64,000 nucleotides of DNA from an uncultured Collinsella sp. (GTDB taxonomy: Bacteria > Actinomycetota > Coriobacteriia > Coriobacteriales > Coriobacteriaceae): the NCBI GenBank assembly GCA_900542235.1, contig UQNB01000001.1:3838-67837 (forward strand), given 5' to 3'. The stretch's first letter is position 1. The number at the start of each line of letters is the position of its first letter. A program made the position numbers and the translations under genes. Positions 1,099 through 42,620 of this stretch are shown one piece after another. Under the pieces are notes generated by a model. The model was not told where the DNA came from. It was given only the letters and a program-made list of their open reading frames with translations, and searched no databases.

Positions 1099-2430
1099 AT
1101 GAAGTACTTTGGCACCGACGGCTTTCGCGGTGAGGCCAACGTTGGGCTGACGGTAGAGCACGCTTATAAGATTGGCCGTTTTGTGGGCTGGTATTACGGC
1201 GCCAACCGCGAGCGCAAGGCGCGCGTCATCGTGGGCAAGGACACCCGTCGCTCGAGCTATATGTTTGAGGCGGCGCTGGTGAGTGGCTTGGTCGCGAGCG
1301 GTGCGGACGCCTATATGCTGCACGTGATCCCCACGCCGGGCGTGGCGCATCAGGCCGTGGAGGGCTGCTTCGATTGCGGCATCATGATCAGTGCGAGCCA
1401 CAACCCGTTTTGCGATAACGGCATTAAGCTCGTCAACAGCGACGGCTTTAAGATGGACGAGGACGTGCTGGAGCTCATCGAGGACTATATCGATGGCAAG
1501 AGCGAGGTGCCGCTGGCAACGGGCAATCACATCGGCGCCACGGTGGACTACATGCAGGGCCGCAACCGCTACATTGCTTCGCTCATCGCCAGCGCGAACT
1601 TTTCGCTGCAGGGCGTCAAGATCGGCATTGACTGCGCCAACGGCTCGGCTTCCTCGGTGGCCAAGCCGGTGTTTGACGCGCTGGGCGCCGACGTGCGCGT
1701 GATCAATGCTGCGCCCGATGGCTTTAACATCAACGTCGACTGCGGCTCCACGCATATGGAGCGCCTGCAGCGCCACGTGGTGGAGCAGGGGCTGGACGTG
1801 GGCTTTGCCTACGACGGCGATGCCGACCGCTGCCTGGCCGTGGATGAGCGCGGTCGCGTGGTAGACGGCGACCAGATCCTGTACGTGTGCGGCGTGTATC
1901 TGAACAAGCACGGGCGACTCTCGGGCGGTACCGTGGTGCCGACGATTGCCAGCAACTTTGGCCTGGTCAAGTCGCTGGAGCTTGCCGGTCTGAGCGCCGT
2001 GACCAGCGGCGTGGGCGACCGTCACGTGTATGCCAAGATGCGCGAGGGCGGCTACAGCCTGGGTGGCGAGCAGACGGGCCATACGATCTTTGGCGATATC
2101 GAGCGCACGGGCGACGGCATTATGACCTCGCTGCGCGTGATGGAAGTGATTCGTGCCGAGCGCGAGACGCTCTCGCAGCTCACGGCTCCGTGCAAGCTGC
2201 TGCCGCAGGCGCAGGTGGCCGTGCACGTGGCGGACAAGGACGCCGCGCTCGAGAACATGGGCGTGCAGAACGCCATCGCCGAGGCCGAGGCCGCGCTGGC
2301 AGGCGAGGGCCGCGTACTGGTGCGCAAGAGCGGAACCGAGTCGGTGATCCGCGTTTTGGCCGAAGCCCCCGACCAAGCCGCCGCCGACGCCGCCATGAAG
2401 CGCATCGCCAACGCGCTCGAGGCTCTGTAG
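1099..2430 (+). CDS. glmM: phosphoglucosamine mutase
   Basis: 443 aa, MKYFGTDGFRGEAN N-terminus and SASHNPFCDNGIK phosphoserine loop. RBS AAGGAGAG upstream. Confidence 0.93.
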   Translation: MKYFGTDGFRGEANVGLTVEHAYKIGRFVGWYYGANRERKARVIVGKDTRRSSYMFEAALVSGLVASGADAYMLHVIPTPGVAHQAVEGCFDCGIMISASHNPFCDNGIKLVNSDGFKMDEDVLELIEDYIDGKSEVPLATGNHIGATVDYMQGRNRYIASLIASANFSLQGVKIGIDCANGSASSVAKPVFDALGADVRVINAAPDGFNINVDCGSTHMERLQRHVVEQGLDVGFAYDGDADRCLAVDERGRVVDGDQILYVCGVYLNKHGRLSGGTVVPTIASNFGLVKSLELAGLSAVTSGVGDRHVYAKMREGGYSLGGEQTGHTIFGDIERTGDGIMTSLRVMEVIRAERETLSQLTAPCKLLPQAQVAVHVADKDAALENMGVQNAIAEAEAALAGEGRVLVRKSGTESVIRVLAEAPDQAAADAAMKRIANALEAL

Positions 2431-2640
2431 TTACGCGGTTTTACCAAACCGCGTAACTACTCGACGCTGCAAACGGCCCCAAGCGGCAATCTGACGTTCA
2501 ATTTCAAGGGCGCGACCAGAAGGTCAGGGCCCTTTCATTTCACGTCACCTTGCTCGCTTAGGGTCGTTTTCGCTGACGTTGCCAAGACATTAGCGTCAAC
2601 GAACTAGTCATTGGGTACCTAGTTATTGGGTGAAAAAAGG
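2431..2640 (-). repeat. ~200-bp structured intergenic repeat, copy R1 (hairpin-first orientation follows glmM)
   Basis: Reverse complement aligns with 59690-59885 and 62480-62705. Perfect palindrome ttacgcggtttt-acc-aaaaccgcgtaa lies 1 nt after the glmM stop. Confidence 0.75.
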
Positions 2641-2696
2641 GGACGCTGCGGATTGGTTCCGCGGCGTCCCCTTTGCGTTGGCGTGTCGGTTATGCC

Positions 2697-4271
2697 TTAC
2701 AGCTCGTAGAGCGTGGTGAACTTGTCCTGCAGGTAGCTGCAGTAGTAGCGGGCATCAAACGCCATGCCGCATGCGCCCTCGATAAGCTCCGGTGCGTCCT
2801 TGGCGCGGCCCCACTGCCAAATGTGCTCGCCCAGCCAGGCACGGACGGGTGCCAGATCGCCGCTCGCGCAGGCACCGGTAAGGTCGACGCCGTCGCGGCA
2901 CATGGCCGGCACAAACATGGCGTCGTAGGCACTGCCCAGCGCATAGGTGGGGAAGTAGCCAAACGAGCCGCCGCTCCAGTGCGTATCCTGCAGGCAGCCG
3001 CGCGTGTCGTCGGGAACGGGAATGCCCAGGTACTCATCCATAAAACGATTCCAAAGCGCGGGGATATCCTTGGCCGTGGCCTCGCCGGCAAACAGCATAC
3101 GTTCGATCTGGTAGCGCACCATAATATGCAGCGGGTAGGTGAGCTCGTCGGCCTCGGTGCGGATCAGCGACGGCTGCGCGATGTTCACGGCGCGGTAGAG
3201 CGTGTCCTCGTCGACGTCGCCGTAGACCTCGGGCGCGTGACGGCGCAGTACCTGCAGCAGCGGTCCCATAAAGGCGCGACTGCGACCCACGGTGTTCTCA
3301 AAGAAGCGGCTCTGGCTCTCGTGGATGCCCATGGAGGTGCCGCCCTCCAGGCAGGTGCGCGCATAGGCGGGATTGACGCCCAGCTCGTACATGGTGTGTC
3401 CCGCCTCGTGGATGATGCTGTAGACGTTGGAGATGCAGTCGTCTTCGTAGATGTGCGTCGCGATGCGCGCATCACCCACGGCAAAGCCCTCGCTAAACGG
3501 GTGCTCAGTAAAGGCAAGCGTGGTGTCGTTCAGGTCCAGGCCGACGAGCTTCATAAGGTCGAAGCTCATGGCGCGCTGGGCAGCCTCGGGCACGCGGGCG
3601 TGCAAAAAGTCGGCAGCTGGCTGCTGGCCGCGCTCGCCGATGGCGTGCACGAGCGGAACGACCGTGGCCTTGACCTCATCGCAAAACGCGTCGAAGCTCT
3701 TGGCGGAAAGGCCACGCTCGTACTGGTCGAGCCAAACATCGTATGGGTCGCGCTTGGGGTCCATGAGCTCGGCCTGATGCTTAAGTTGGGCGACGATTCT
3801 ATCCACATAGGTCTCAAAGCTCGCCCAGTCGTTGGCTGCCTTGGCCTTGCGCCACACGGCGTCCGCCTCGCAGGTGAGCCTGGTCCAGGCCTCGGCTTCT
3901 TCGGTGGGGATGGCACTGGCCTCACGTTGATCGCGGCCGAGCACACGGATCTCGTCGAGCAGCTGAGGGTCGTCGATTTTGCCGCCGGCGACGGTCTCGC
4001 GCGCTAACGAGCGTACGAGCTCAACGGACTTCTCGCTGGTCAGCAGCTTGTGATGCTCGCCGGCAAGCGTGCCCATGGCGTCGGCACGCGCTGCTGCGCC
4101 GTTGGCGGGGGCAATGGTCGCGCCGTCAAACTCGGCAATCTTGAGCAGGTACTCACGAGTCCACAGCTTGCCTTCGAGCTTGCGGAATTTTTTGACGGCC
4201 TTATCGACCTTCATGCCTTTGGATGTCTTGCCCGCTGCAGGCTCGGCCTTCTTATCGAGTTTCTTTCCCAT
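2697..4271 (-). CDS. M32 family carboxypeptidase (carboxypeptidase Taq-like)
   Basis: HEAGHTMYE zinc motif, HPFSEG...DARITT and HESQSRFFEN motifs of the M32 family. Rho-independent terminator 2648-2690 on the minus strand. Confidence 0.85.
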   Translation of the reverse strand: MGKKLDKKAEPAAGKTSKGMKVDKAVKKFRKLEGKLWTREYLLKIAEFDGATIAPANGAAARADAMGTLAGEHHKLLTSEKSVELVRSLARETVAGGKIDDPQLLDEIRVLGRDQREASAIPTEEAEAWTRLTCEADAVWRKAKAANDWASFETYVDRIVAQLKHQAELMDPKRDPYDVWLDQYERGLSAKSFDAFCDEVKATVVPLVHAIGERGQQPAADFLHARVPEAAQRAMSFDLMKLVGLDLNDTTLAFTEHPFSEGFAVGDARIATHIYEDDCISNVYSIIHEAGHTMYELGVNPAYARTCLEGGTSMGIHESQSRFFENTVGRSRAFMGPLLQVLRRHAPEVYGDVDEDTLYRAVNIAQPSLIRTEADELTYPLHIMVRYQIERMLFAGEATAKDIPALWNRFMDEYLGIPVPDDTRGCLQDTHWSGGSFGYFPTYALGSAYDAMFVPAMCRDGVDLTGACASGDLAPVRAWLGEHIWQWGRAKDAPELIEGACGMAFDARYYCSYLQDKFTTLYEL

Positions 4272-5852: not shown

Positions 5853-6029
5853 GGCACCGTGTCCCGGCGGCTTTTCCAAGCACCGCACCTCGCCTTTCAA
5901 TCGTCGGTTGCGTACCTAAGTACGCTGCCCTCCTCTTTCAAGGCAATCTGCGGCACTTGGACACCCCTAAGGCGAACGTCTTCATTTGATATTCCTTTCT
6001 TTGCGGAGATTAAGAACTAGGAGAGCTAC

Positions 6030-18829: not shown

Positions 18830-19489
18830 GTGAACAAGAGCAAGCGCATCGCCATCAGTCTGGTCGCGGGCGTGCTCGCTGCTCTGCTTTGCATGGTTTA
18901 CGGCTCGTCGATCCGCTCGCAAGCCGAACAGGTCCAGGCTGAGACCTTGGCCAAGTACGGTGGCGATCGCGTCGAGGTATGCGTCGCGGCGCGCGATATC
19001 GATGTGGGCGAGACCCTCGATGAGACCAATGTCATAACCCAGGAATGGCTGACGAGTCTGCTGCCGCGTGACGCGGCGACCGAGCTGCGCCAGGTGCGCG
19101 GCGACGCGACGACTTCGCGTATTCCCAAAAACGCCGTGATCTGCAATGTCTACACCAAGGCCGAGAGCCGCAAGCTCGAGGTGCCTAAGGGCAAGGTTGC
19201 CGTTTCGGTGGCGGTCGATGCCGAGCACTCGGTCGGCGGTGCCACGGGCGTGGGCAGCTACGTGGACGTGTACGTGCAAAAGGACGGCGTGACCGATCGG
19301 CTGTGCGGCGCGCACGTGATCGATACCAGTGAGGATTCCTGTGCCACGCGCGAGGGCAAGATCGAATGGGTGACGTTGGCGGCTGACCCCGAAGACGTCA
19401 AGGAACTGCTGGGAGCCTCGGGCAAGGGAACGGTCAGCTTGACGATTCCCGCCACGGCGCGCGGCAAAAAGAGCGGAGGCGACGAGTGA
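18830..19489 (+). CDS. cpaB: Flp pilus assembly protein CpaB/RcpC (SAF domain)
   Basis: N-terminal TM followed by a SAF/CpaB domain. First gene of the tad locus. GTG start after AGGAGC; ATG 18815 is the alternative. Confidence 0.8.
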   Translation: MNKSKRIAISLVAGVLAALLCMVYGSSIRSQAEQVQAETLAKYGGDRVEVCVAARDIDVGETLDETNVITQEWLTSLLPRDAATELRQVRGDATTSRIPKNAVICNVYTKAESRKLEVPKGKVAVSVAVDAEHSVGGATGVGSYVDVYVQKDGVTDRLCGAHVIDTSEDSCATREGKIEWVTLAADPEDVKELLGASGKGTVSLTIPATARGKKSGGDE

Positions 19490-21182
19490 TGAAGGCGATC
19501 TGGCTTGCGTGCTGCGCGTGCGGCGATTACGGGCTGTTGCAGCGGGAAGTCGAGGGCCGTGATGCGGGTGCACAGGTGCTTCGCGTGGGTGACCTGGACG
19601 GGCTGGTTTCCATGGCGCGGGCGTTTCCGTCGCGCCGCGGGGCTGCCATCATCGCGGCGTCTCTGTTTGATACCGAAGATGTGCGCAAGACTGTTGCGCG
19701 CCTGACGGCCGAAGGCCGCGTGAGTCGCGTGGTCGTGTTGATAGAAGCGCTCGATCCGTCGGATATCGAGGGGCTGTTTCGCGCGGGGGCGACCGAGGTC
19801 ATCGCTGCACACAGTATATGCGGCAACGGGCGCGCGGGCGAGGGAGCGGTTGATTCCGATCGGCGCATGACGATTGAGCCCGATGCTTTTGTTGATAGGG
19901 AACCCGGGGCGCCTCGCGCTACAAGAGGCCCGCGTGTTGATGATTATGGAAAAGCGGAAGCCGAGCATGGTCGGCGCCCCCGGAACCCCCTTGTATACGA
20001 TGACGCTGGAGGGCCGGCGCAGCATGCTGGCGACTCCCCGGCAGTAGATATGGGATACGTGCACGGCGTGAATCTGGCGGATGAACTCGACGAAGTTGAG
20101 GGCCTTGCCGGGTGCGGCGAGTTGTCGCTGATGCAGCATGAGCAGATTGCGCAGAACGAGCCTGCCTCGCAGACCGAACAAGCAGCCATGCCGGCTTGGA
20201 CGCAGCACGTGGTTGCGGCGGGGGAGACGGGGACGCTGTCACCGACGCCCGCCCCGCCGCCTCCGCTGCCGCCAGACGCTACCGCTCCGCCGCATCGAGT
20301 TCCAGTCATCTGCGCTATTTCGGGTTCGGGCGGTTGCGGCAAGTCGACGATCGTTGCCACCATGGCACACACATCGTCGCTGTTGGGCTTGCGTGCCGCC
20401 GTGCTCGACCTGGACCTGATGTTTGGAAACCTTTACGACTTGTTAGGCGTCGATGCTCCGTGCGATATGGCGGGACTTATTCAGCCCGCCGCGGGGGGCC
20501 GCCGCATCCAGATGGGGCGGCATTTAGGGAGCCGTCGGCGGCGGGCATGCTCACCGAGCCGGATATCGTAGCCGCTTCGATGCGCGTGGCGCCGGGCGTT
20601 ACGCTCTGGGGTCCCGTCGCGGCGCCCGAGCAAGCCGAGCTCATGGCACGTCCGGTGGAGCTACTGCTTGATGTTCTGCGTCGCGAATCCGACGTGGTCT
20701 TTATCGATACCTCGGTCTTTTGGGGCGACGCCGTGGCGGCTGCGGTGGCGGCGAGCGACCGTTGCCTGGTCGTTGGCGATGCGGCGGTGTCGTCCGCGGC
20801 ATCGGCATCGCGCGTCATTGAACTGGCAGGTCGAGTAGGTGTGCCGCGCACGCGCATGAGCGCCGTGTTCAACCGGTTCGGTGCGCGCGGGGCAGACGAG
20901 GACGTCGCCATGCGCTTTGAGATTGCCTGTGCGTTAAGCTCCAAGATTCGTATCGCCGATGGCGGGCAGGATCTCGCCGCGCTCATGGCGTTTGGGCGCG
21001 CTGACGAGGCAGTGGGGCAGACCAGCGCTTTTGCGACTAGCGTGCGCGAGGCCACGCGCGAGATGCTCGTGGAACTGGGGTGCGCCGTCGGCCCTTGGAG
21101 CGATATGGTCGCCGACCGTGCAACGCGCACCGAACGCCCACGTATCCGCCTTCCCTGGTCGCGCGAGGGTGATCAGCGATGA
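19486..21182 (+). pseudogene. cpaE: CpaE/TadZ-like pilus-assembly ATPase (receiver-like N-domain plus MinD/ParA P-loop), disrupted by a -1 frameshift near 20493-20500
   Basis: The P-loop ISGSGGCGKST and following ~60 aa lie in one frame. The rest of the ATPase domain (SDVVFIDTS, LVVGDAAVSS) continues in the -1 frame. The junction sits at a G6 run, and adding one base restores ...PAAGGPPHPDG...MLTEPDIV. Confidence 0.75.
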
Positions 21183-22507
21183 GCCTGCAAACGAGGATTA
21201 AGGCTGCCGGCGCTGCGGCGGCGGCAGCGCCTGTAGATGTGGGGCGTCGCCGCGCCGTGAAACGACGCACCAAGCGCGCCGTGATGGACCGCATGGGTTA
21301 CGACGAAGTGGCGCGTATCAGCGCCTATATCGACCCGGCACTTGCCCGCTCGGAATTGCGTCCTGCGGTGGAGGCGGCGCTCAATGTTGAGGAGCCGACC
21401 GATCTCGCGACGCCCGAGCGCGAGACCATCATCGACGAGATTTTGGATGACGTGGTGGGCTTGGGGCCGTTGCAGCCGCTCATCGAGGACGACACCGTTA
21501 CCGAGATCATGATCAACGGCTGCCGCTCGGCTTTCTTTGAACGCGGCGGCGTCTTGTACCCCATCGAGCATGCGTTTGAGGATGATGAGCAGATCCGTGT
21601 GCTTATCGACCGTATTATCTCGCCACTTGGCCGCCGTATCGACGAGCGCAGCCCCATCGTCAACGCCCGCCTCAAAACGGGCTATCGCGTCAACGCGGTG
21701 ATTCCGCCTGTGGCGATTGACGGACCGATTCTCACCATCCGAAAGTTCTCGGACCGTATCTGCTCGCTGGACGAGCTCGTGGGGTTGGGATCGCTGCCGC
21801 TTTGGTATGCGCAGCTGCTGTCGTGTGCGGTGTCGCTGCGACAGGACCTGGCGGTTGCGGGAGGCACGGGATCTGGTAAGACCACCCTGCTCAACGCGTT
21901 GTCATGTGAGATTTCCACCGGCGAGCGCATCGTGACGATCGAGGACTCTGCCGAGCTCAAGTTTGCGCATCATCCGCACGTGGTGCGCCTAGAGGCGCGC
22001 GAGGCTTCAATTGAGGGCGAGGGCGCGGTGACGATCCGCGACCTGGTGACTAATGCCCTGCGCATGCGCCCCGACCGCATCGTGGTGGGCGAGGTGCGCG
22101 GTGCCGAGTGCTGCGACATGTTGCAGGCCATGAACACGGGCCACGACGGGTCGCTTACCACGCTTCATGCGGGTTCAGAACAGGAGACCGTGGTGCGTCT
22201 GACGTTGCTTGCACGTTATGGCATCGATCTGCCGAGCGAGCTCATCGAGGAGCAGATTGCCATGGCACTCGACGGTATCGTGATGTCCGAGCGCCACGCC
22301 GATGGCAGGCGCTTCGTCTCCTCGTATTCGGGGGTGCGACGCGCCGCATCGGGCGGCGTAGAGCTCGAGCGCTATGTGACGTTCGATGCCGCCGAGCGCA
22401 CCTGGACGCTTGACCGCGAGCCGCCGTTTATCGCAGAAGGCCTGCGGTCGGGGACGCTCACACAAGAGGAGGTGGACGAATGGAGATCACTGTGCCCCTC
22501 GTCGTAG
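21179..22507 (+). CDS. cpaF: Flp pilus assembly ATPase CpaF/TadA
   Basis: Secretion NTPase with Walker [10 protein letters not shown], Asp box and His box. ATGA overlap with cpaE. Confidence 0.9.
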
Positions 22508-23406
22508 GGGGCTTGGCAGGGCTTTCTGTCGCGACGGCGTGCGGGGCGGAACCTCGTGTGCCGCAGGTACCGCCGGCGGAGCTGGCACGTCAGGCGCTCG
22601 AGACGGTGGCAGAGAAGCTGCCGCGTGAGCTGGTGGAAAACGATCTGCTGAAAAAGATCGCCCGTTCGTGGGCATCGCTGGCTCCGGCGCATCGCCTTGG
22701 CCTCGTGATCGAAGATGCTTCGGGACGTTTGGCGTTTCTGCTGCTATCGAGCGGTGTCTGCTGCGTTTTACTAACGATGGTGTCGTTATCGCCCCTCGGA
22801 TTTGCCTTGGGACTTGTTGCTCCGTTTGCCGTTGGTGCCGCTCGGGATGGCTTTGAGAGCCGGCGCGAGCAACACGATGCAGAAGAGGCAATGCCCGAGG
22901 CGTTTACCGCACTTTCCATGTCGCTTGCCTCGGGACATTCGCTGGCCCAGGGCATGCGCTTTGTGGGCGCTCATGCGCAAGAGCCAGTGCATACCGAGTT
23001 TTTGCGGGTGGCGGCGGCGATCGATTGCGGCATCTCGGCGACCGACGCGCTCGATGACTTGCTCGTGCGTATCGACGCCCCCGGTCTTTCGCTTGTGACC
23101 TTGGCGCTTAAGGTGTCTCAGCGCACCGGCGCTCCGCTTGCCGACTTACTGTCCGAGGCGTCGAGCATGGTGGGGGAGCGCATTGAGCTCAAGCGCCGCC
23201 TGGATGTTAAGACGTCGCAGGCTCGCATGTCTGCGCATATGGTCGCGGCGATGCCGGCGGGCATGTGCGCGGTGTTGGCGCTGCTTTCGGCAGATTTTCG
23301 TCGCGGTCTTGCGACGCCTGCCGGCGCGGGCGCTGTGGTGCTGGGTCTTGCCCTCAACGCCGTTGCCCTGGTGGTTATCCGGCGCATTATGCGGGTGGAG
23401 CTATGA
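22480..23406 (+). CDS. tadB: Tad secretion system inner-membrane protein TadB (GspF-like)
   Basis: 308 aa polytopic membrane protein of T2SS-F family topology, immediately after cpaF. Confidence 0.8.
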   Translation: MEITVPLVVGGLAGLSVATACGAEPRVPQVPPAELARQALETVAEKLPRELVENDLLKKIARSWASLAPAHRLGLVIEDASGRLAFLLLSSGVCCVLLTMVSLSPLGFALGLVAPFAVGAARDGFESRREQHDAEEAMPEAFTALSMSLASGHSLAQGMRFVGAHAQEPVHTEFLRVAAAIDCGISATDALDDLLVRIDAPGLSLVTLALKVSQRTGAPLADLLSEASSMVGERIELKRRLDVKTSQARMSAHMVAAMPAGMCAVLALLSADFRRGLATPAGAGAVVLGLALNAVALVVIRRIMRVEL

Positions 23407-28632: not shown

Positions 28633-28705
<73 letters not shown>

Positions 28706-29001
28706 CCTTGAATTGACTAGGACCTCTGCAAAGGGGTCCTTTTCTTTTATGTAGGGTTCTGCGGAAACTGCGTCCCAGAATAAGGGCTCAGAACGGGACA
28801 CACTTTCCGGTGCCTGCCTTTGGCGCGCGTACACACCTCGTCGCACCATTCCGAGCCCGCCCGCCCCAGACATTCCTCCCACTTTCGCGTCACTTTGCAG
28901 ACCGTTCGGTCGCCTGTCCGCACACGCGGGTATACTCAAAACGATACTTATCCTATGCAATACGATGCAGGCTCGACCTGCATGATTCGAAGGGGGCAGT
29001 G

Positions 29002-34540: not shown

Positions 34541-34627
34541 GCGGGCGTGGCGGAATTGGCAGACGCGTACGGTTCAGGTCCGTATGGGGGCAACCCCATG
34601 AAGGTTCAAGTCCTTTCGCCCGCACCA
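34541..34627 (+). tRNA. tRNA-Leu (CAG), class II with long variable arm
   Basis: Acceptor GCGGGCG/CGCCCGC, anticodon loop UUCAGGU, extra-arm hairpin, encoded CCA. Terminator follows. Confidence 0.85.
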
Positions 34628-34726
34628 TTGATTGAAAGAGCTCCCAGCAATGGGAGCTTTTTTGTTATGCACGATCTCCTTGGACGGGTATCCTAATGCC
34701 AACGTGTGCCTATCAGAGGAGAGACC

Positions 34727-39340: not shown

Positions 39341-39417
39341 GCGGCGTTACCTCAGCTGGATAGAGGGTCTGACTACGAATCAGAACGTCATAGGTTCGAA
39401 TCCTATACGCCGCACCA
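39341..39417 (+). tRNA. tRNA-Arg (ACG)
   Basis: Acceptor GCGGCGT/ACGCCGC, anticodon loop CUACGAA, T-loop GGTTCGAATCC, encoded CCA. Terminator follows. Confidence 0.85.
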
Positions 39418-39469
39418 ATTGAGATTAAAGCCTCCGGCAACGGGGGCTTTTCTTTTACGTAAACACCGC

Positions 39470-39646
39470 ATGGATTCGAACCTCGGTCGAGGCGCGGGCG
39501 TAAGGAAAACGCGGAGCGTTTTTAGCCCGCGGGCGAGCACGCCGGCAGGCGGCCGAAGCCGGTGCGGATCCGCGAAGCGGATACGCGGAATCCTATACGC
39601 CGCACCAATTGAAATTGAAGCCTCCGGCAACGGGGGCTTTTTTGTT
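39470..39646 (+). mobile_element. tRNA-Arg-linked structured insert (~118 nt) plus a 57-nt direct repeat of the tRNA-Arg 3' end and terminator
   Basis: 39588-39646 repeats 39398-39454 with 3 mismatches. The insert begins with GGATTCGAACC, the reverse complement of the tRNA T-loop, and is ~70% identical to the insert after tRNA-Ser. Confidence 0.6.
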
Positions 39647-39731
39647 ATTGACTCGTGTAAGATTCCGAGTAAGCGTCTCGGTGCACCTGGGGCGCGCCCT
39701 TTCTTTAGACGACCGATCAGGGTGATATTTC

Positions 39732-42173
39732 GTGGCAGAGCGTCCGACTTATAAGCTCAAGTTTCTCGATCCCAAGAAGCGCTTTCCGGTGATGCCCGAG
39801 CAGCCTGCAGGGCGCTCGTATGGCGTTGTTTGGAAACTCTTTGGCGACGATCCGCACGAATCATGCTACGCCGTTGAATTCGTCGGCAAGAGCCATGTGT
39901 CACTTTTAGGCTACGTGAGCGTTTCGGGCGAAGTGTACAAGGTGGACCGCCCCGTTAGCGAGGCGCCGTTGCCCGATGATCCCGATATGCAACTGGTTCT
40001 TGATGAGTCCGACTCCAGCATTGGCGAGATTGCGGTAAGGGGCGCCGATGGGACGATGCGTCCCCGGGCGCGGGTCATCGGCTCTCCAAAAGGCCCTATG
40101 CGCGAGCAGTCCGACCGCGAGACATGGAATTCGGCCCGCAGCCTCCCTTACGGTGAGTTCATGGCATCTATGTTCTTGCGCTACGTGATATTTGCCGACT
40201 CCGAAAATGCTATTGCGACCACGGCAGACACCCATAGGCTCGACGAGAGCATGCACAATGTCGTCGACAAGATCAAACTCGTCAAGCTGCCCGAGCCAGT
40301 CGAAGTGCTGCTGGGCTTTGATTCGACGCCGCTTCCCGATGCCATCGAGACGTTGCTCTACCGCATTGACCATACGGATAATCCGAGCGGCATCGAGCGC
40401 TATGCCGCGGCCTTGATGGGCGAAGTCAATCTGCCTCGTCTGCGTACCATAGCGACAAAAACCGAAATGAGCTTGGCCCGTATCGACCGTTCAAAGCTCT
40501 TTTACCTCAATTTCGATCGCAGCCTGCTGGATCAGGACGAGATCGACACCTTGCTTGCCATTGAGTGCCGCCTGAACCGCCTCTCGGGCATTCTTGAGCG
40601 TATCGGAGCCGGATTGGCCCCTGTCGCCTCATCGCCAAGCTTTGAGGGTTGCTCGCTCTTTGATCTGTGGCACATCTCTAAGACGACCAACGATGTTCCT
40701 CGCTTGCTCGAAACGCTGTCGAGAGACAACCCGTGGGCCAAGCCGGGAACCGTTTCGTGCCAGCCGGGTGGCGAGTGGGACGTGCGCACCCGCTTTGCAC
40801 GAATTGTCGAGGCGCTCAACGTGGTCACGCGACTCGACTATACCTATCGTGTCAACGTTGCCGAGGGGATTATGCGCGTCCAGTTTGGGCACTCTGTCGT
40901 TGGTGCCATGCCGCAGCGTGAATATGACGCTCAGGATGACGCCTGGCGCGAACTGGACGAGGACGTGCGTGCGGCGTGGGCCGCGGAGCACGACGCGCGC
41001 GTGGCGCTTACGCTTGCAGCGGCTTGCTTTGCCGCGGGTGCCTGCATCACGCGCTGCTATGTGCAGATTGAGGCTCCCGACAACGAGCGGGATGTGAACA
41101 TCGTCGCAACGTATTCCTTTGCCCGTGCCGAGTATTTTGCCGATTGTGTTCCCGTCGCCAAGGATCTTGAGAGCATGGGTATGGACGATATGCCGTGCAA
41201 GCGCATGCTTGAGGCATATGAGGCGACCACGCCGGATATGATTGAGCCTGCTGAGGTCCACGCTCGCCCGCGTGACGACCATCGTCCGCTGCCGCCGGCG
41301 TTGCGCGACCTGTTGCTTGCCGATACGGCTGACGAGTTGGAAGTTATGGAAGAGGATGGCGACCCGTACGTGGCGCGCGTCGTTGAATTGCGCGAGCAGT
41401 CTAAAACTGACCGTGCAGGTGCATTCGAGGGCTTTTCTCGTTTGGCCGAGGAGCTGGAGGCCAAGTGTGCCGTTGCCGAGCTCTTGGCAACGGGGCCGGT
41501 CCAAACGCAGTTCTGCGACAACCAGTTGGTACGCATGGTGCTGCCGGTGATGGAGGAGGATCGTTCCGTGCGCATTCTGCGCGCGCCCGATGCGCTGTAC
41601 TTTGCCCAGCACGAGATTTGCAGCTTTTATGCCGAACAGGAAGATTTTGAGCGCGCGTTGCCCGAGGTGCGCCGCCTTTACGATTTGGCGCGCTCGTCCA
41701 TGCAATCGCATTTTGCGCTGATTAACGTGCTGGCGCGCCTGGAGCGTTTTGACGAGGTTATCGAGGTGGCCCGTCACGGTTTGCGCATCGCGAGCGATCG
41801 TCCCTCGATCGGCTACCTGTTTTACCGTTTGGCATTTGCATACTGGAACTGCGATCAGCTCGAGCTGGCGCTGGCGTGCTACCGCCTCGTGCCGCGCGGC
41901 GAGGAGTCGGGCAGCAGCGCGCTGGAGGAAATGCAGGGCCTCATGAACGAGATGGGCATCAATGAGCCTCCGACGTTCGATGATGCGGTTGAGACCATCC
42001 GCAAGGCGGGGCTCGAGTTGCCGCCGGTGCCCGCCGTGACCAACCAGCTGGCGGATGCTGCCGTACAACTCGTTGATAACGGTTTCTTCTTCCTGGCGCG
42101 CGGTTGCATCTTCCAAATGTGGCGTACCATGGGTAACGACGAGCTCGGCTCCCTCAACCGCTCGCTGGGGTAG
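39732..42173 (+). CDS. large hypothetical cytoplasmic protein (813 aa), TPR-like C-terminal region
   Basis: Long ORF with coding-like codon usage. GTG start after GGGTGA; ATG 39792 is the alternative. No catalytic motif recognised. Confidence 0.6.
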   Translation: MAERPTYKLKFLDPKKRFPVMPEQPAGRSYGVVWKLFGDDPHESCYAVEFVGKSHVSLLGYVSVSGEVYKVDRPVSEAPLPDDPDMQLVLDESDSSIGEIAVRGADGTMRPRARVIGSPKGPMREQSDRETWNSARSLPYGEFMASMFLRYVIFADSENAIATTADTHRLDESMHNVVDKIKLVKLPEPVEVLLGFDSTPLPDAIETLLYRIDHTDNPSGIERYAAALMGEVNLPRLRTIATKTEMSLARIDRSKLFYLNFDRSLLDQDEIDTLLAIECRLNRLSGILERIGAGLAPVASSPSFEGCSLFDLWHISKTTNDVPRLLETLSRDNPWAKPGTVSCQPGGEWDVRTRFARIVEALNVVTRLDYTYRVNVAEGIMRVQFGHSVVGAMPQREYDAQDDAWRELDEDVRAAWAAEHDARVALTLAAACFAAGACITRCYVQIEAPDNERDVNIVATYSFARAEYFADCVPVAKDLESMGMDDMPCKRMLEAYEATTPDMIEPAEVHARPRDDHRPLPPALRDLLLADTADELEVMEEDGDPYVARVVELREQSKTDRAGAFEGFSRLAEELEAKCAVAELLATGPVQTQFCDNQLVRMVLPVMEEDRSVRILRAPDALYFAQHEICSFYAEQEDFERALPEVRRLYDLARSSMQSHFALINVLARLERFDEVIEVARHGLRIASDRPSIGYLFYRLAFAYWNCDQLELALACYRLVPRGEESGSSALEEMQGLMNEMGINEPPTFDDAVETIRKAGLELPPVPAVTNQLADAAVQLVDNGFFFLARGCIFQMWRTMGNDELGSLNRSLG

Positions 42174-42265: not shown

Positions 42266-42356
42266 GGAGAGCTGACCGAGAGGCCGAAGGTGCTCGCCTG
42301 CTAAGCGAGTATGCCCCAAAAGGGCATCTGGGGTTCGAATCCCCAGCTCTCCGCCA
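42266..42356 (+). tRNA. tRNA-Ser (GCT), class II
   Basis: Acceptor GGAGAGC/GCTCTCC, anticodon loop CUGCUAA, long variable-arm hairpin, T-loop GGTTCGAATCC, encoded CCA. Confidence 0.85.
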
Positions 42357-42407
42357 GTATGACTTGAAAGAAGGGTCCCATTTGGGGCCCTTTTTTGTGC
42401 GGAGAAA

Positions 42408-42620
42408 GGAGGCTGGGGATTCGAACCCGAGAGGGCACGGGCGTTAAGCAAACGCGAAAGCGTTTGTAGCCCGTGGGCGAAAAGCCGCCAGGCTTTGAAG
42501 CCGGAGGGCATGCGCAGCATGCCCGGACATCCCCAGCTCTCCGCCAGTACGAATTTGAAGAAGGGTCCCATTTGGGGCCCTTTTTATTATCAAGAATGGC
42601 GGCTGGGGATTCGAACCCTC
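42408..42620 (+). mobile_element. tRNA-Ser-linked structured insert (~121 nt) plus a 57-nt direct repeat of the tRNA-Ser 3' end and terminator, plus a 21-nt partial third copy
   Basis: 42529-42585 repeats 42339-42396. The insert begins with CTGGGGATTCGAACCC, the reverse complement of the tRNA T-arm/acceptor. Homologous to the Arg-linked insert. 42598-42618 repeats the insert's 5' end. Confidence 0.6.

Follow-up and report, generated by a model that had tools for sequence, protein, structure and literature searches.

We analyzed a 64,000-nt window of Collinsella DNA (G+C content ~60%, Collinsella aerofaciens-like) and describe in it the element X, a non-coding, hairpin-rich core of ~120 nt that lies downstream of the tRNA-Arg(ACG) and tRNA-Ser(GCU) genes. 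The core belongs to a repeating unit of ~190 nt, which consists of a tRNA 3' end, a terminator, a spacer and X; the original prediction, made from the window alone, had taken the 120-nt insert as the repeating element and is corrected in this respect. The reading that we favor, giving it about even chances, is that X represents an apparently undescribed family of miniature, non-coding, non-autonomous insertion elements that are specific for the T-loop of tRNA and transfer-messenger RNA (tmRNA) genes in Collinsella. This reading draws on the architecture of the unit, the matching of each X to the T-arm of its own gene, the position of the junction in the T-loop, alleles with and without the unit, and a conserved, covarying fold of one strand.

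The features of the two occupied loci are listed below, where T stands for the 3' part of a tRNA gene with its trailer and terminator, P1 for the helix between X and the T copy that follows it, and hpA to hpD for the hairpins of X.

39341..39417, + strand: tRNA-Arg(ACG), the Arg-class target gene (ARAGORN; Rfam tRNA, 66 bits)
39398..39457, + strand: T#1 (Arg), the tRNA 3' part from the T-loop (GAATCC...CCA) with trailer and intrinsic terminator (direct repeat; terminator 39427-39450)
39464..39587, + strand: X, Arg class (nhmmer match 39464-39597, E 6.5e-41; folds; covariation)
39472-39477: Arg X, 5' strand of P1, the inverted T-loop GGATTC
39481-39492: Arg X, hpA
39493-39499 / 39525-39531: Arg X, outer stem of hpB
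39505-39523: Arg X, inner part of hpB
39532-39560: Arg X, hpC
39564-39586: Arg X, hpD
39588..39647, + strand: T#2 (Arg), the second tRNA 3' copy with terminator (direct repeat, 93%; terminator 39617-39640)
39588-39593: 3' strand of P1 at Arg, the first 6 nt of T#2, GAATCC
42266..42356, + strand: tRNA-Ser(GCU), the Ser-class target gene (ARAGORN; Rfam)
42339..42411, + strand: T#1 (Ser), the tRNA 3' part from T-loop position 59 with trailer, terminator hairpin and variable spacer (direct repeat)
42412..42528, + strand: X, Ser class (inverted repeat; fold z-scores; core identity across 39 species genomes)
42412-42428: Ser X, inverted T-arm GCTGGGGATTCGAACCC
42412-42420: Ser X, 5' strand of P1, followed by unpaired TCGAA at 42421-42425
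42426-42435: Ser X, hpA
42436-42442 / 42469-42475: Ser X, outer stem of hpB
42448-42467: Ser X, inner part of hpB, loop GAAA
42476-42502: Ser X, hpC
42506-42524: Ser X, hpD, loop GCA
42525-42528: Ser X, 3' end GGAC
42529..42601, + strand: T#2 (Ser), the second copy of tRNA positions 59-76 (ATCCCCAGCTCTCCGCCA) with trailer, terminator and spacer (direct repeat, 87%)
42529-42537: 3' strand of P1 at Ser, within T#2
42602..42618, + strand: stump of a further Ser unit, an inverted T-arm GCTGGGGATTCGAACCC with no core that abuts the dacA terminator (inverted repeat, 100%)

A repeat search detected a 60-nt direct repeat at the Arg locus (39398-39457 and 39588-39647, 93% identity) and a 90-nt direct repeat at the Ser locus (42339-42428 and 42529-42618, 87% identity), with a start-to-start spacing of exactly 190 nt at both loci. 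The repetition of the tRNA-Ser 3' end and terminator, originally proposed over 57 nt, thus extends over 90 nt and includes a 17-nt inverted T-arm. The regions downstream of the Arg and Ser genes are 76% identical by column, in agreement with the proposed homology of the two inserts. At the Ser locus, 42412-42432 is 95% complementary to 42327-42347, and the insert does start with an inverted T-arm, perfect over 17 nt. A third, likewise perfect 17-nt copy is the stump at 42602-42618, which is 100% complementary to 42331-42347; the 21-nt fragment at 42598-42618, earlier noticed as a repeat of the 5' end of the insert, was correctly seen as a repeat but is really the 5' stump of a further, truncated unit. 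The string GGATTCGAACC occurs six times in the window against 1.0 expected, namely in the T-arms of tRNA-Phe, tRNA-Arg and tRNA-Ser (three of the four window tRNAs) and in the three inverted copies.

By a pattern scan of one genome per species we recovered at least 120 stretches, and by a second, looser pattern at least 119 stretches in a metagenome collection; copies and loci were counted in 245 sequences mapped with BLAST, nhmmer and ARAGORN. Among the matches listed, those in species genomes belong throughout to Collinsella or Coriobacteriaceae, save a single chance match within a coding region of an Erythrobacteraceae genome (L069), and those in metagenomes come from human gut assemblies wherever the record names state a source. 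X was found behind at least nine genes, tRNA-Arg(ACG), Ser(GCU), Leu(CAG), Leu(UAA), Gly(GCC), Gly(CCC), Phe(GAA), Lys(UUU) and tmRNA, so other tRNA genes do carry the insert and it is not confined to the two loci of the window. The full-length copies (324) are located directly after a tRNA or tmRNA gene in 275 cases, after another X in 14 and at contig ends in 23, while the 12 remaining, apparently orphan copies are attR fragments of prophages or islands or follow tRNAs that ARAGORN missed. The classes form two subfamilies, I (Arg, tmRNA, Leu and Gly, together with a divergent Ser class) and II (Phe and Lys), which by eye are ~55-60% identical to each other and keep the same architecture. Units, measured between successive T starts, are 186-199 nt long in all classes but one (Arg and Ser, 190 nt each; Leu(CAG), 189 nt; Phe, 186 nt; Gly(GCC), 187 nt; Gly(CCC), 192 nt; Leu(UAA), 195 nt; tmRNA, 198-199 nt), the exception being the Lys class with 176 nt.

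In every class, X carries the reverse complement of the T-arm of its own gene, at best over positions 51-67. Ser and tmRNA show a perfect complement over these 17 nt, and in Leu(UAA) all but one of the 17 positions are complementary, the sole mismatch being a G·U at position 60. In the other classes the match is 12-15 nt long, covering positions 51-64 in Gly(CCC), 51-62 in Leu(CAG), and 51-62 with degeneration beyond in Arg, Phe and Gly(GCC). The target T-loops differ from class to class (TTCGAAT, TTCGATT, TTCAAGT, TTCGAGC, TTCGAGT, TTCGAAC) and X tracks each of them, which indicates that the match is specific and goes beyond the generic T-loop. The claim that each insert is matched to its own tRNA therefore holds for all classes and is clearest for the perfect 17 nt of Ser, but it is weaker for Arg, where the match is only 12 nt long (GGATTCGAACCT), consists mostly of generic T-loop and is followed by one deletion and one mismatch. 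In three contigs the functional 3' end of tRNA-Gly(CCC) has an A at position 59 (A59); the corresponding C-to-T change is present in X at a distance of 73 nt, and the distal T copy retains G59, now in a G·T pair. This observation indicates that pairing between the complementary segment and its own T-arm (or the T of the unit itself) is maintained.

In all nine classes, the start of T#2 agrees with a junction that separates T-loop positions 58 and 59 (58|59). In the Ser, both Leu and both Gly classes it cannot lie further to the left, while in Arg, tmRNA, Lys and Phe the identity of the T copies extends 2-3 nt further, to positions 56-57; all junctions follow TTCRA. The duplication spans ~60-90 nt, terminator and spacer included, in Arg, Ser, Leu(CAG), Leu(UAA), Phe and Lys. 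In Gly(GCC), Gly(CCC) and, in one divergent species, tmRNA, only positions 59-76/77 are duplicated, and there the two terminators are unrelated to each other. Two simple models were considered and rejected: a staggered-cut target duplication misfits Gly(GCC) and Gly(CCC) with their unrelated terminators, and an element-borne T module is hard to fit to Leu(CAG) and Phe, whose repeated sequence is that of the local allele.

At several tRNA-Gly(CCC) loci (L142, ~2590-2720; L149; L129; L168) a different element, 'Y', of ~95 nt is located between two 18-nt copies of positions 59-76. Y shares with X only the last ~40 nt, the hpD module. At its 5' end is a degenerate inverted copy of positions 59-76 that abuts the CCA end and forms a near-palindrome with it.

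Two further tRNA genes of the window are unoccupied sites of classes that carry X elsewhere.

34541..34690, + strand: tRNA-Leu(CAG) with terminator, an unoccupied Leu-class site; no X here in the window, other strains filled exactly here
28633..28707, + strand: tRNA-Phe(GAA), an unoccupied Phe-class (subfamily II) site; no X match here

At Leu(CAG), the window represents the empty allele (...ttttttgttatg|cacgat), and other strains have X and a second copy of 60 nt, from the T-loop to gttatg, exactly at that point. A pair of empty and filled alleles of the same kind was found for Phe in gut metagenome contigs. Loci with full-length X and loci without X number 89 and 35 for tRNA-Arg, 44 and 14 for tRNA-Ser, 34 and 3 for tRNA-Leu(CAG), 11 and 13 for tRNA-Gly(GCC), and 45 and 0 for tmRNA. 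The Arg locus contains one to three tRNA-Arg genes with zero to three units each. The 'empty' Ser loci all still hold the terminator and the 17-nt inverted T-arm stump, and in the Arg, tmRNA and Lys classes the arrays likewise finish with a 5' stump of X. The T copies further from the gene have decayed (gtccccatggccgctcca at Gly(CCC) is one case), which fits newer units adjoining the gene. Recombination between the T repeats would remove a unit precisely, thus empty alleles alone are no proof of recent insertion. The original prediction spoke of a mobile or structured element; structure, presence/absence alleles and arrays were all found, and mobility would be one way to account for them.

Several copies of X are chimeric, joining a tmRNA-type left part to an Arg-type right part, Arg to Leu, an Arg variant to Gly(CCC), or tmRNA to Gly(GCC). 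Such copies, seen in L051, L047 and metagenomes, arose either by recombination between X elements of different loci or through errors of assembly at this repeat.

Arrays of palindromes resembling repetitive extragenic palindromic (REP) sequences (GGGACGCGCTTTCC...GGAAAGCGCGTCCCGGAATC, period ~50 nt) occur downstream of tmRNA and tRNA-Phe. They are located in L002 (minus strand, ~2200-2860), L010 and L016, and after tRNA-Phe in L133, L175 and L188; at tmRNA they break off a second X copy after 47 nt. These arrays are a separate Collinsella repeat family.

Folding with DNA parameters gives both window copies the same P1, hpA, hpB (outer and inner), hpC and hpD. The Ser copy keeps this architecture under RNA parameters, whereas the minimum-energy fold of the Arg copy closes differently. 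The fold z-scores of the + strand are -8.8 (RNA) and -6.6 (DNA) for Ser, and -1.2 (RNA) and -2.8 (DNA) for Arg. A hand-drawn structure was tested for covariation on a 21-sequence alignment that represents all nine classes. Paired states fill 89.1% of cells, against 29-44% with the partners slid by 1-3 columns, 14 pairs are changed on both sides, and the covariation score is 0.241, a value reached in none of 500 shuffles, compared with 0.094 for shuffled alignments. The pair 31/70 occurs as C-G, A-U, G-C and U-A, and hpD is fully rewritten among classes (ATCCGC/GCGGAT, ATTTGC/GCAAAT, GGTTCGC/GCGAAC, GCCTGC/GCAGGC, GGGCATGC/GCATGCCC and GTCCGCGC/GCGCGGAC). X thus shows the compensatory changes expected of a structured single-stranded nucleic acid. 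The stem covariation first seen between Arg (cgcgggc/gcccgcg) and Ser (cacgggc/gcccgtg) is multiplied by the further copies, in support of the earlier view of a conserved RNA or single-stranded DNA structure rather than decaying junk; a loss of covariation on aligning more copies, named in advance as grounds for giving up that view, was not seen, and the covariation increased.

In the internal helices of 94 subfamily I copies, 151 cells are G·U and 7 are A·C, which identifies the + strand (tRNA sense) as the folding strand. By GC skew, this strand is the lagging-strand template in the window. A tRNA-like gene on the minus strand was rejected, as ARAGORN and Rfam were negative, its would-be T-stem is unpaired and the G·U/A·C asymmetry favors the + strand. 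Within the fold, the complement of the T-arm is split into three parts: the part for positions 59-67 forms P1 with the T copy that follows, the part for 51-53 is the 5' strand of hpA, and the part for 54-58 (TCGAA or TTGAA) is unpaired.

The loops of the + strand are nearly all of the form c(GNA)g or c(GNNA)g; among them are GCGAAGC and GCGAAAGC, which we take to be the classic extraordinarily stable DNA mini-hairpins (Hirao, Yoshizawa and colleagues). The inner loop of hpB is GGA in 158 copies, GAA in 74, GAAA in 44, GTAA in 37, GTGA in 8 and GCAA in 5, and the loop of hpD is GAA in 163, GCA in 98, GTA in 15 and GGA in 7. Ninety-four tetraloops are of the GNRA type, and tandem G·A pairs occur inside hpB in 22-23 copies. 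The rule for stable DNA mini-hairpins covers the GNA triloops, in which N is unrestricted, as well as the rare GNYA loops; the acting form of the fold may be either RNA or DNA. A promoter of its own for X was considered and rejected: no sigma-70-like site was found ahead of X, which sits behind a canonical terminator, so any X RNA would stem from read-through.

Conservation was measured at the Ser locus as the mean pairwise identity among 39 species-representative genomes. The X core (100 nt) is 98.8% identical, compared with 77% and 78% for the first and second trailer within the unit, 86% for the 60 nt upstream of the locus and 77% for the 60 nt downstream. The core is therefore strongly constrained and not decaying. 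The second tRNA 3' copy is exact in 39 of the 44 Ser loci. Trailers at the first and second position belong to one common allele pool and are no more alike within genomes than between them, so units undergo constant reassortment.

Under the favored reading of X as an insertion element, a unit would bring along a new tRNA 3' end that starts at position 59, then a terminator, a spacer that is short and variable, and X itself (~120 nt), and would be placed between T-loop positions 58 and 59, so that the gene stays intact. The displaced native 3' end would become T#2 after X; newer units would adjoin the gene, and older ones would decay distally. X would act as the folded + strand (tRNA sense), its fold rebuilding the duplex of the target T-arm with an open five-base 'toehold' opposite positions 54-58. 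It can be speculated that an enzyme acting in trans pairs the element with the tRNA gene and exchanges strands at 58|59. The candidates are a tyrosine recombinase working on folded single-stranded DNA, as with integron attC and CTX-phage attP sites, and an HUH nuclease nicking a hairpin loop. By analogy with such systems we infer a single-stranded DNA intermediate and the enzyme itself; current mobility, too, is inferred. Homologous recombination between the T repeats would then delete units or expand arrays.

Several observations weigh against this reading. Among the matches listed, the distribution of X is known only for Collinsella; other genera were also approached through a neighboring 813-aa protein, but its best 120 matches are all at least 91% identical and thus appear to be Collinsella orthologues only. 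Recombination between the T repeats, which are 60-90 nt long, could have produced all empty alleles by deletion. At the Leu(CAG), Phe, Arg and Ser loci, both T copies hold the locus-specific terminator and up to 17 nt beyond it, which looks like a long target duplication rather than an element-borne module, and a route by which a unit would gain a new locus-specific T module lacks explanation. The 98.8% identity of the Ser core at an orthologous locus, beside trailers of 77%, exceeds what a passive parasite needs and suggests that X either serves the host or is constantly turned over. The tandem G·A pairs and the tetraloops of the GNRA type would equally suit RNA. Finally, no partner enzyme has been identified and no circular or excised form was seen.

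X could instead be mainly a host non-coding RNA, perhaps a domesticated element, whose antisense segment pairs with the T-arm of the cognate tRNA or pre-tRNA, an explanation that we consider a serious one though on the unlikely side. Such an RNA would be produced by read-through of the tRNA terminator, would end at the second terminator and would control tRNA processing or quality in cis or in trans; P1 and a tRNA-like CCA tail would lead to 3' processing of the tRNA type, and the nine copies would be ancient duplications under selection. The core is conserved nearly like a tRNA (98.8%, with flanks at 77-86%), the second tRNA 3' copy is exact in 39 of 44 Ser loci, and X has the same sense as the tRNA, with its 151 G·U and 7 A·C cells. 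The 94 GNRA tetraloops, the tandem G·A pairs of hpB in 22-23 copies and the closure of each unit by its own intrinsic terminator are in line with an RNA, and an RNA that pairs with its tRNA would need to covary with position 59 of the functional tRNA copy, as X does. However, X is preceded by a canonical terminator and by no promoter-like site, and at a given gene X is missing from many genomes, which means that no individual copy is essential. A gene may have zero to three copies, with stumps and chimeras being common, the loops of hpD, c(GNA)g with N unrestricted, and the rare GNYA loops are more in keeping with DNA mini-hairpins than with RNA tetraloops, and no RNA family matches. The host RNA and the insertion unit are compatible with each other, as X may be, or may have become, a host RNA.

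A more specific form of the insertion reading, which we hold only tentatively and think rather unlikely to be right in full, is that X constitutes the cis half of a hitherto unknown guide-directed insertion system. A folded DNA or RNA strand with a 17-nt T-arm complement and a 5-nt toehold would select the target, an enzyme in trans would insert the unit at 58|59 and thereby restore the gene, and the system would have been retargeted to nine genes by changes of the guide.

Two other explanations fit the data poorly. Movement through RNA is improbable; here a reverse transcriptase would copy the tRNA precursor up to 1-methyladenosine at position 58 (m1A58) and then switch template to an X RNA, which would explain the 58|59 junction and the 18-nt copy of positions 59-76. 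TrmI, the enzyme that makes m1A58, is present in Actinobacteria, and the modified base stops reverse transcriptases. The junction is indeed compatible with 58|59 in all classes, and Gly(GCC), Gly(CCC) and one tmRNA locus duplicate exactly positions 59-76/77. Against this, identity up to positions 56-57 in Phe, Lys, Arg and tmRNA indicates that a stop at 58 is not required, and the duplication in five classes runs 11-17 nt past the terminator hairpin, beyond the normal transcript end; both findings weaken the m1A58 stop as the cause of the junction. Truncated copies retain the 5' part of X, the opposite of abortive reverse transcription from the 3' end, and no reverse transcriptase gene was seen in the window. 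Least probable of all, and already largely refuted, is that X consists of inert scars of integrase-mediated prophage or island integration, leftover attP arms after loss of the interior: tRNA and tmRNA genes are classic integration sites with a displaced 3' fragment as the hallmark (PMC4383910, PMC9897764), and real users of these genes exist (tmRNA attR in L121-L124, the tRNA-Gly(CCC) island in L224), but the same 120-nt core with the same boundaries at nine genes excludes independent interior deletions, compensatory changes and 98.8% conservation show that the core is not decaying, and no phage or plasmid in the collections has X, the viral-contig matches being host flank past the prophage end.

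Searches of Rfam 15 at E<=10 with the Arg, Ser, Phe and Gly(CCC) classes matched tRNAs only and nothing over X, the group I and II intron, tmRNA, YrlA and Collinsella-1 models included; the possibility raised originally, that the inserts correspond to an annotated tRNA-adjacent family, thus found no support, as no known family covers X. By blastn, the phage and plasmid collections contained no match to X itself, and four matches on viral contigs are host flank past the prophage end at tmRNA. In these contigs the tmRNA attR (..agctccacca and terminator) is followed by tmRNA-class X, which indicates that they overshoot into host DNA, and a phage or plasmid origin of X was rejected. In the literature we found the general principle of integration into tRNA genes (tDNAs) only, and no description of such an element.

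Prophages are located at the extreme 3' end of the Collinsella tmRNA gene in L121-L124 (IMG/VR contigs), L022 and L033. An island in tRNA-Gly(CCC) (L224, 345-419 and ~5900-6000) has its crossover in the anticodon loop; it is bounded by the intact gene at one end and, at the other, by a partial gene from the anticodon loop, followed by a terminator and X.

Neither an open reading frame (ORF) within the 190-nt unit nor a recombinase, transposase or reverse transcriptase among the window ORFs scanned was found, these being housekeeping genes (pheST, Tad-pilus genes, serS, dacA, Hsp90 and ABC transporters). The gene list of a 22-kb syntenic stretch of a complete genome (L244) likewise contains no recombinase, transposase or reverse transcriptase. 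Strain-specific, gene-bearing insertions near tRNA-Ser in L108 and L244 were considered and rejected as unrelated cargo without a recombinase. In L108, a 406-aa protein (1756-2976, minus strand) directly follows the inverted T-arm stump. In L244 (12798-15527), an AAA ATPase (360 aa) lies upstream of tRNA-Ser and a 165-aa ORF downstream.

Among known systems, integrative elements of tRNA and tmRNA genes (tyrosine-integrase prophages, integrative and conjugative elements and their actinomycete counterparts (ICEs and AICEs), Islander-type islands) resemble X in using the 3' part of the gene with a T-loop subsite, in supplying a new 3' end and displacing the native fragment as a direct repeat, and in successive or tandem insertions at one gene (PMC4383910). 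Such elements restore the gene and displace its fragment (PMC4383910; see also PMC9897764), and their crossovers are known to fall in the anticodon loop, in the T loop or at the T/acceptor junction (PMC4383910). In all nine classes X is flanked by an intact tDNA and a displaced direct 3' fragment, and in each of them the junction agrees with a T-loop crossover at 58|59. In contrast to these elements, the unit of X is 190 nt long and has no ORF, hence neither an integrase nor any other gene, its core has a conserved fold of several hairpins that includes the target in inverted form, and its repeat includes the terminator of the locus in several classes. Islander requires an integrase gene (PMC4383910), so searches of this type would discard X.

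Integron attC and CTX-phage attP(+) sites share with X strand-specific imperfect hairpins of ~60-150 nt, structure kept by compensatory change, arrays of units, and a folded strand that rebuilds a duplex site resembling the double-stranded target. Unlike attC, X lacks the R and L box consensus (RYYYAAC / GTTRRRY), which was looked for and not seen at the ends of X. It also lacks an intI/attI platform, a dif-like site and an ORF, its target is the tRNA T-arm, and no integrase was found among the window ORFs scanned.

Miniature inverted-repeat transposable elements (MITEs), the REP/BIME/REPIN repeats and the palindrome-associated transposable elements (PATEs) derived from IS200/IS605 are, like X, small, non-coding, hairpin-forming and multi-copy in a genus, and MITE-like repeats would need moving in trans, as X would. 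IS200/IS605 elements choose their target by internal-guide pairing and insert 3' of a short motif, which for X would be TTCRA. PATEs have subterminal hairpins and insert 3' of a fixed tetra- or pentanucleotide with no duplication; in X, all junctions come after TTCRA and hairpins stand near both ends of the unit, but a long target repeat is present. X differs from MITEs in having neither terminal inverted repeats (its ends, ..CACCGCATGG and ..ACGCGGA, are not inverted repeats) nor a target duplication of 2-10 bp, the duplication being 18-90 nt. It differs from IS200/IS605 in a complementary segment of 12-17 nt, compared with 4-5 nt, and in targets that are strictly T-loops of tRNA and tmRNA genes; the window showed no Y1 transposase.

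The internal guide of group I introns, the exon-binding sites (EBS) of group II introns and the IS110 bridge RNA are, like the complement in X, antisense segments across the insertion point. The segment of X covers 8 nt to the left and 9 nt to the right of the junction, a layout like that of a group I guide with both exons. Unlike these guide-bearing RNAs, X has no ribozyme core (nothing for Rfam group I and II at E<=10) and no recombinase or reverse transcriptase gene, and its guide is one continuous stretch, whereas bridge RNAs have split loops.

Transfer RNA and tmRNA genes are the main landing sites of mobile DNA, and their known occupants are multi-gene islands with an integrase; a gene-free unit of 190 nt with target-matched pairing is invisible to pipelines that need an integrase gene, such as Islander. 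If the complementary segment truly selects the target, X would be a compact natural case of gene-sparing insertion directed by base pairing, and the guide-directed system, if real, would be a naturally programmable means of gene-sparing integration. If X is a host RNA, a tRNA-specific antisense partner would be encoded behind each tRNA gene, which would also be unusual. Either way, a strongly conserved element is present in one of the commonest genera of the human gut. X is also a practical source of misassemblies (the chimeric copies) and of copy-number variation at the strain level.

Between tRNA-Arg and tRNA-Ser, the window encodes the 813-aa protein mentioned above (39732-42173, + strand), which has no Pfam domain, is 98-99% identical to Collinsella aerofaciens proteins and is 91-99% conserved in many Collinsella; it is named a tetratricopeptide repeat protein in one source and hypothetical in another. 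Upstream of the tRNA-Phe region (19486-23406, + strand) are genes resembling those of Tad/type IV pili, encoding a ParA/CpaE-like ATPase, a T2SSE ATPase and a T2SSF membrane protein.

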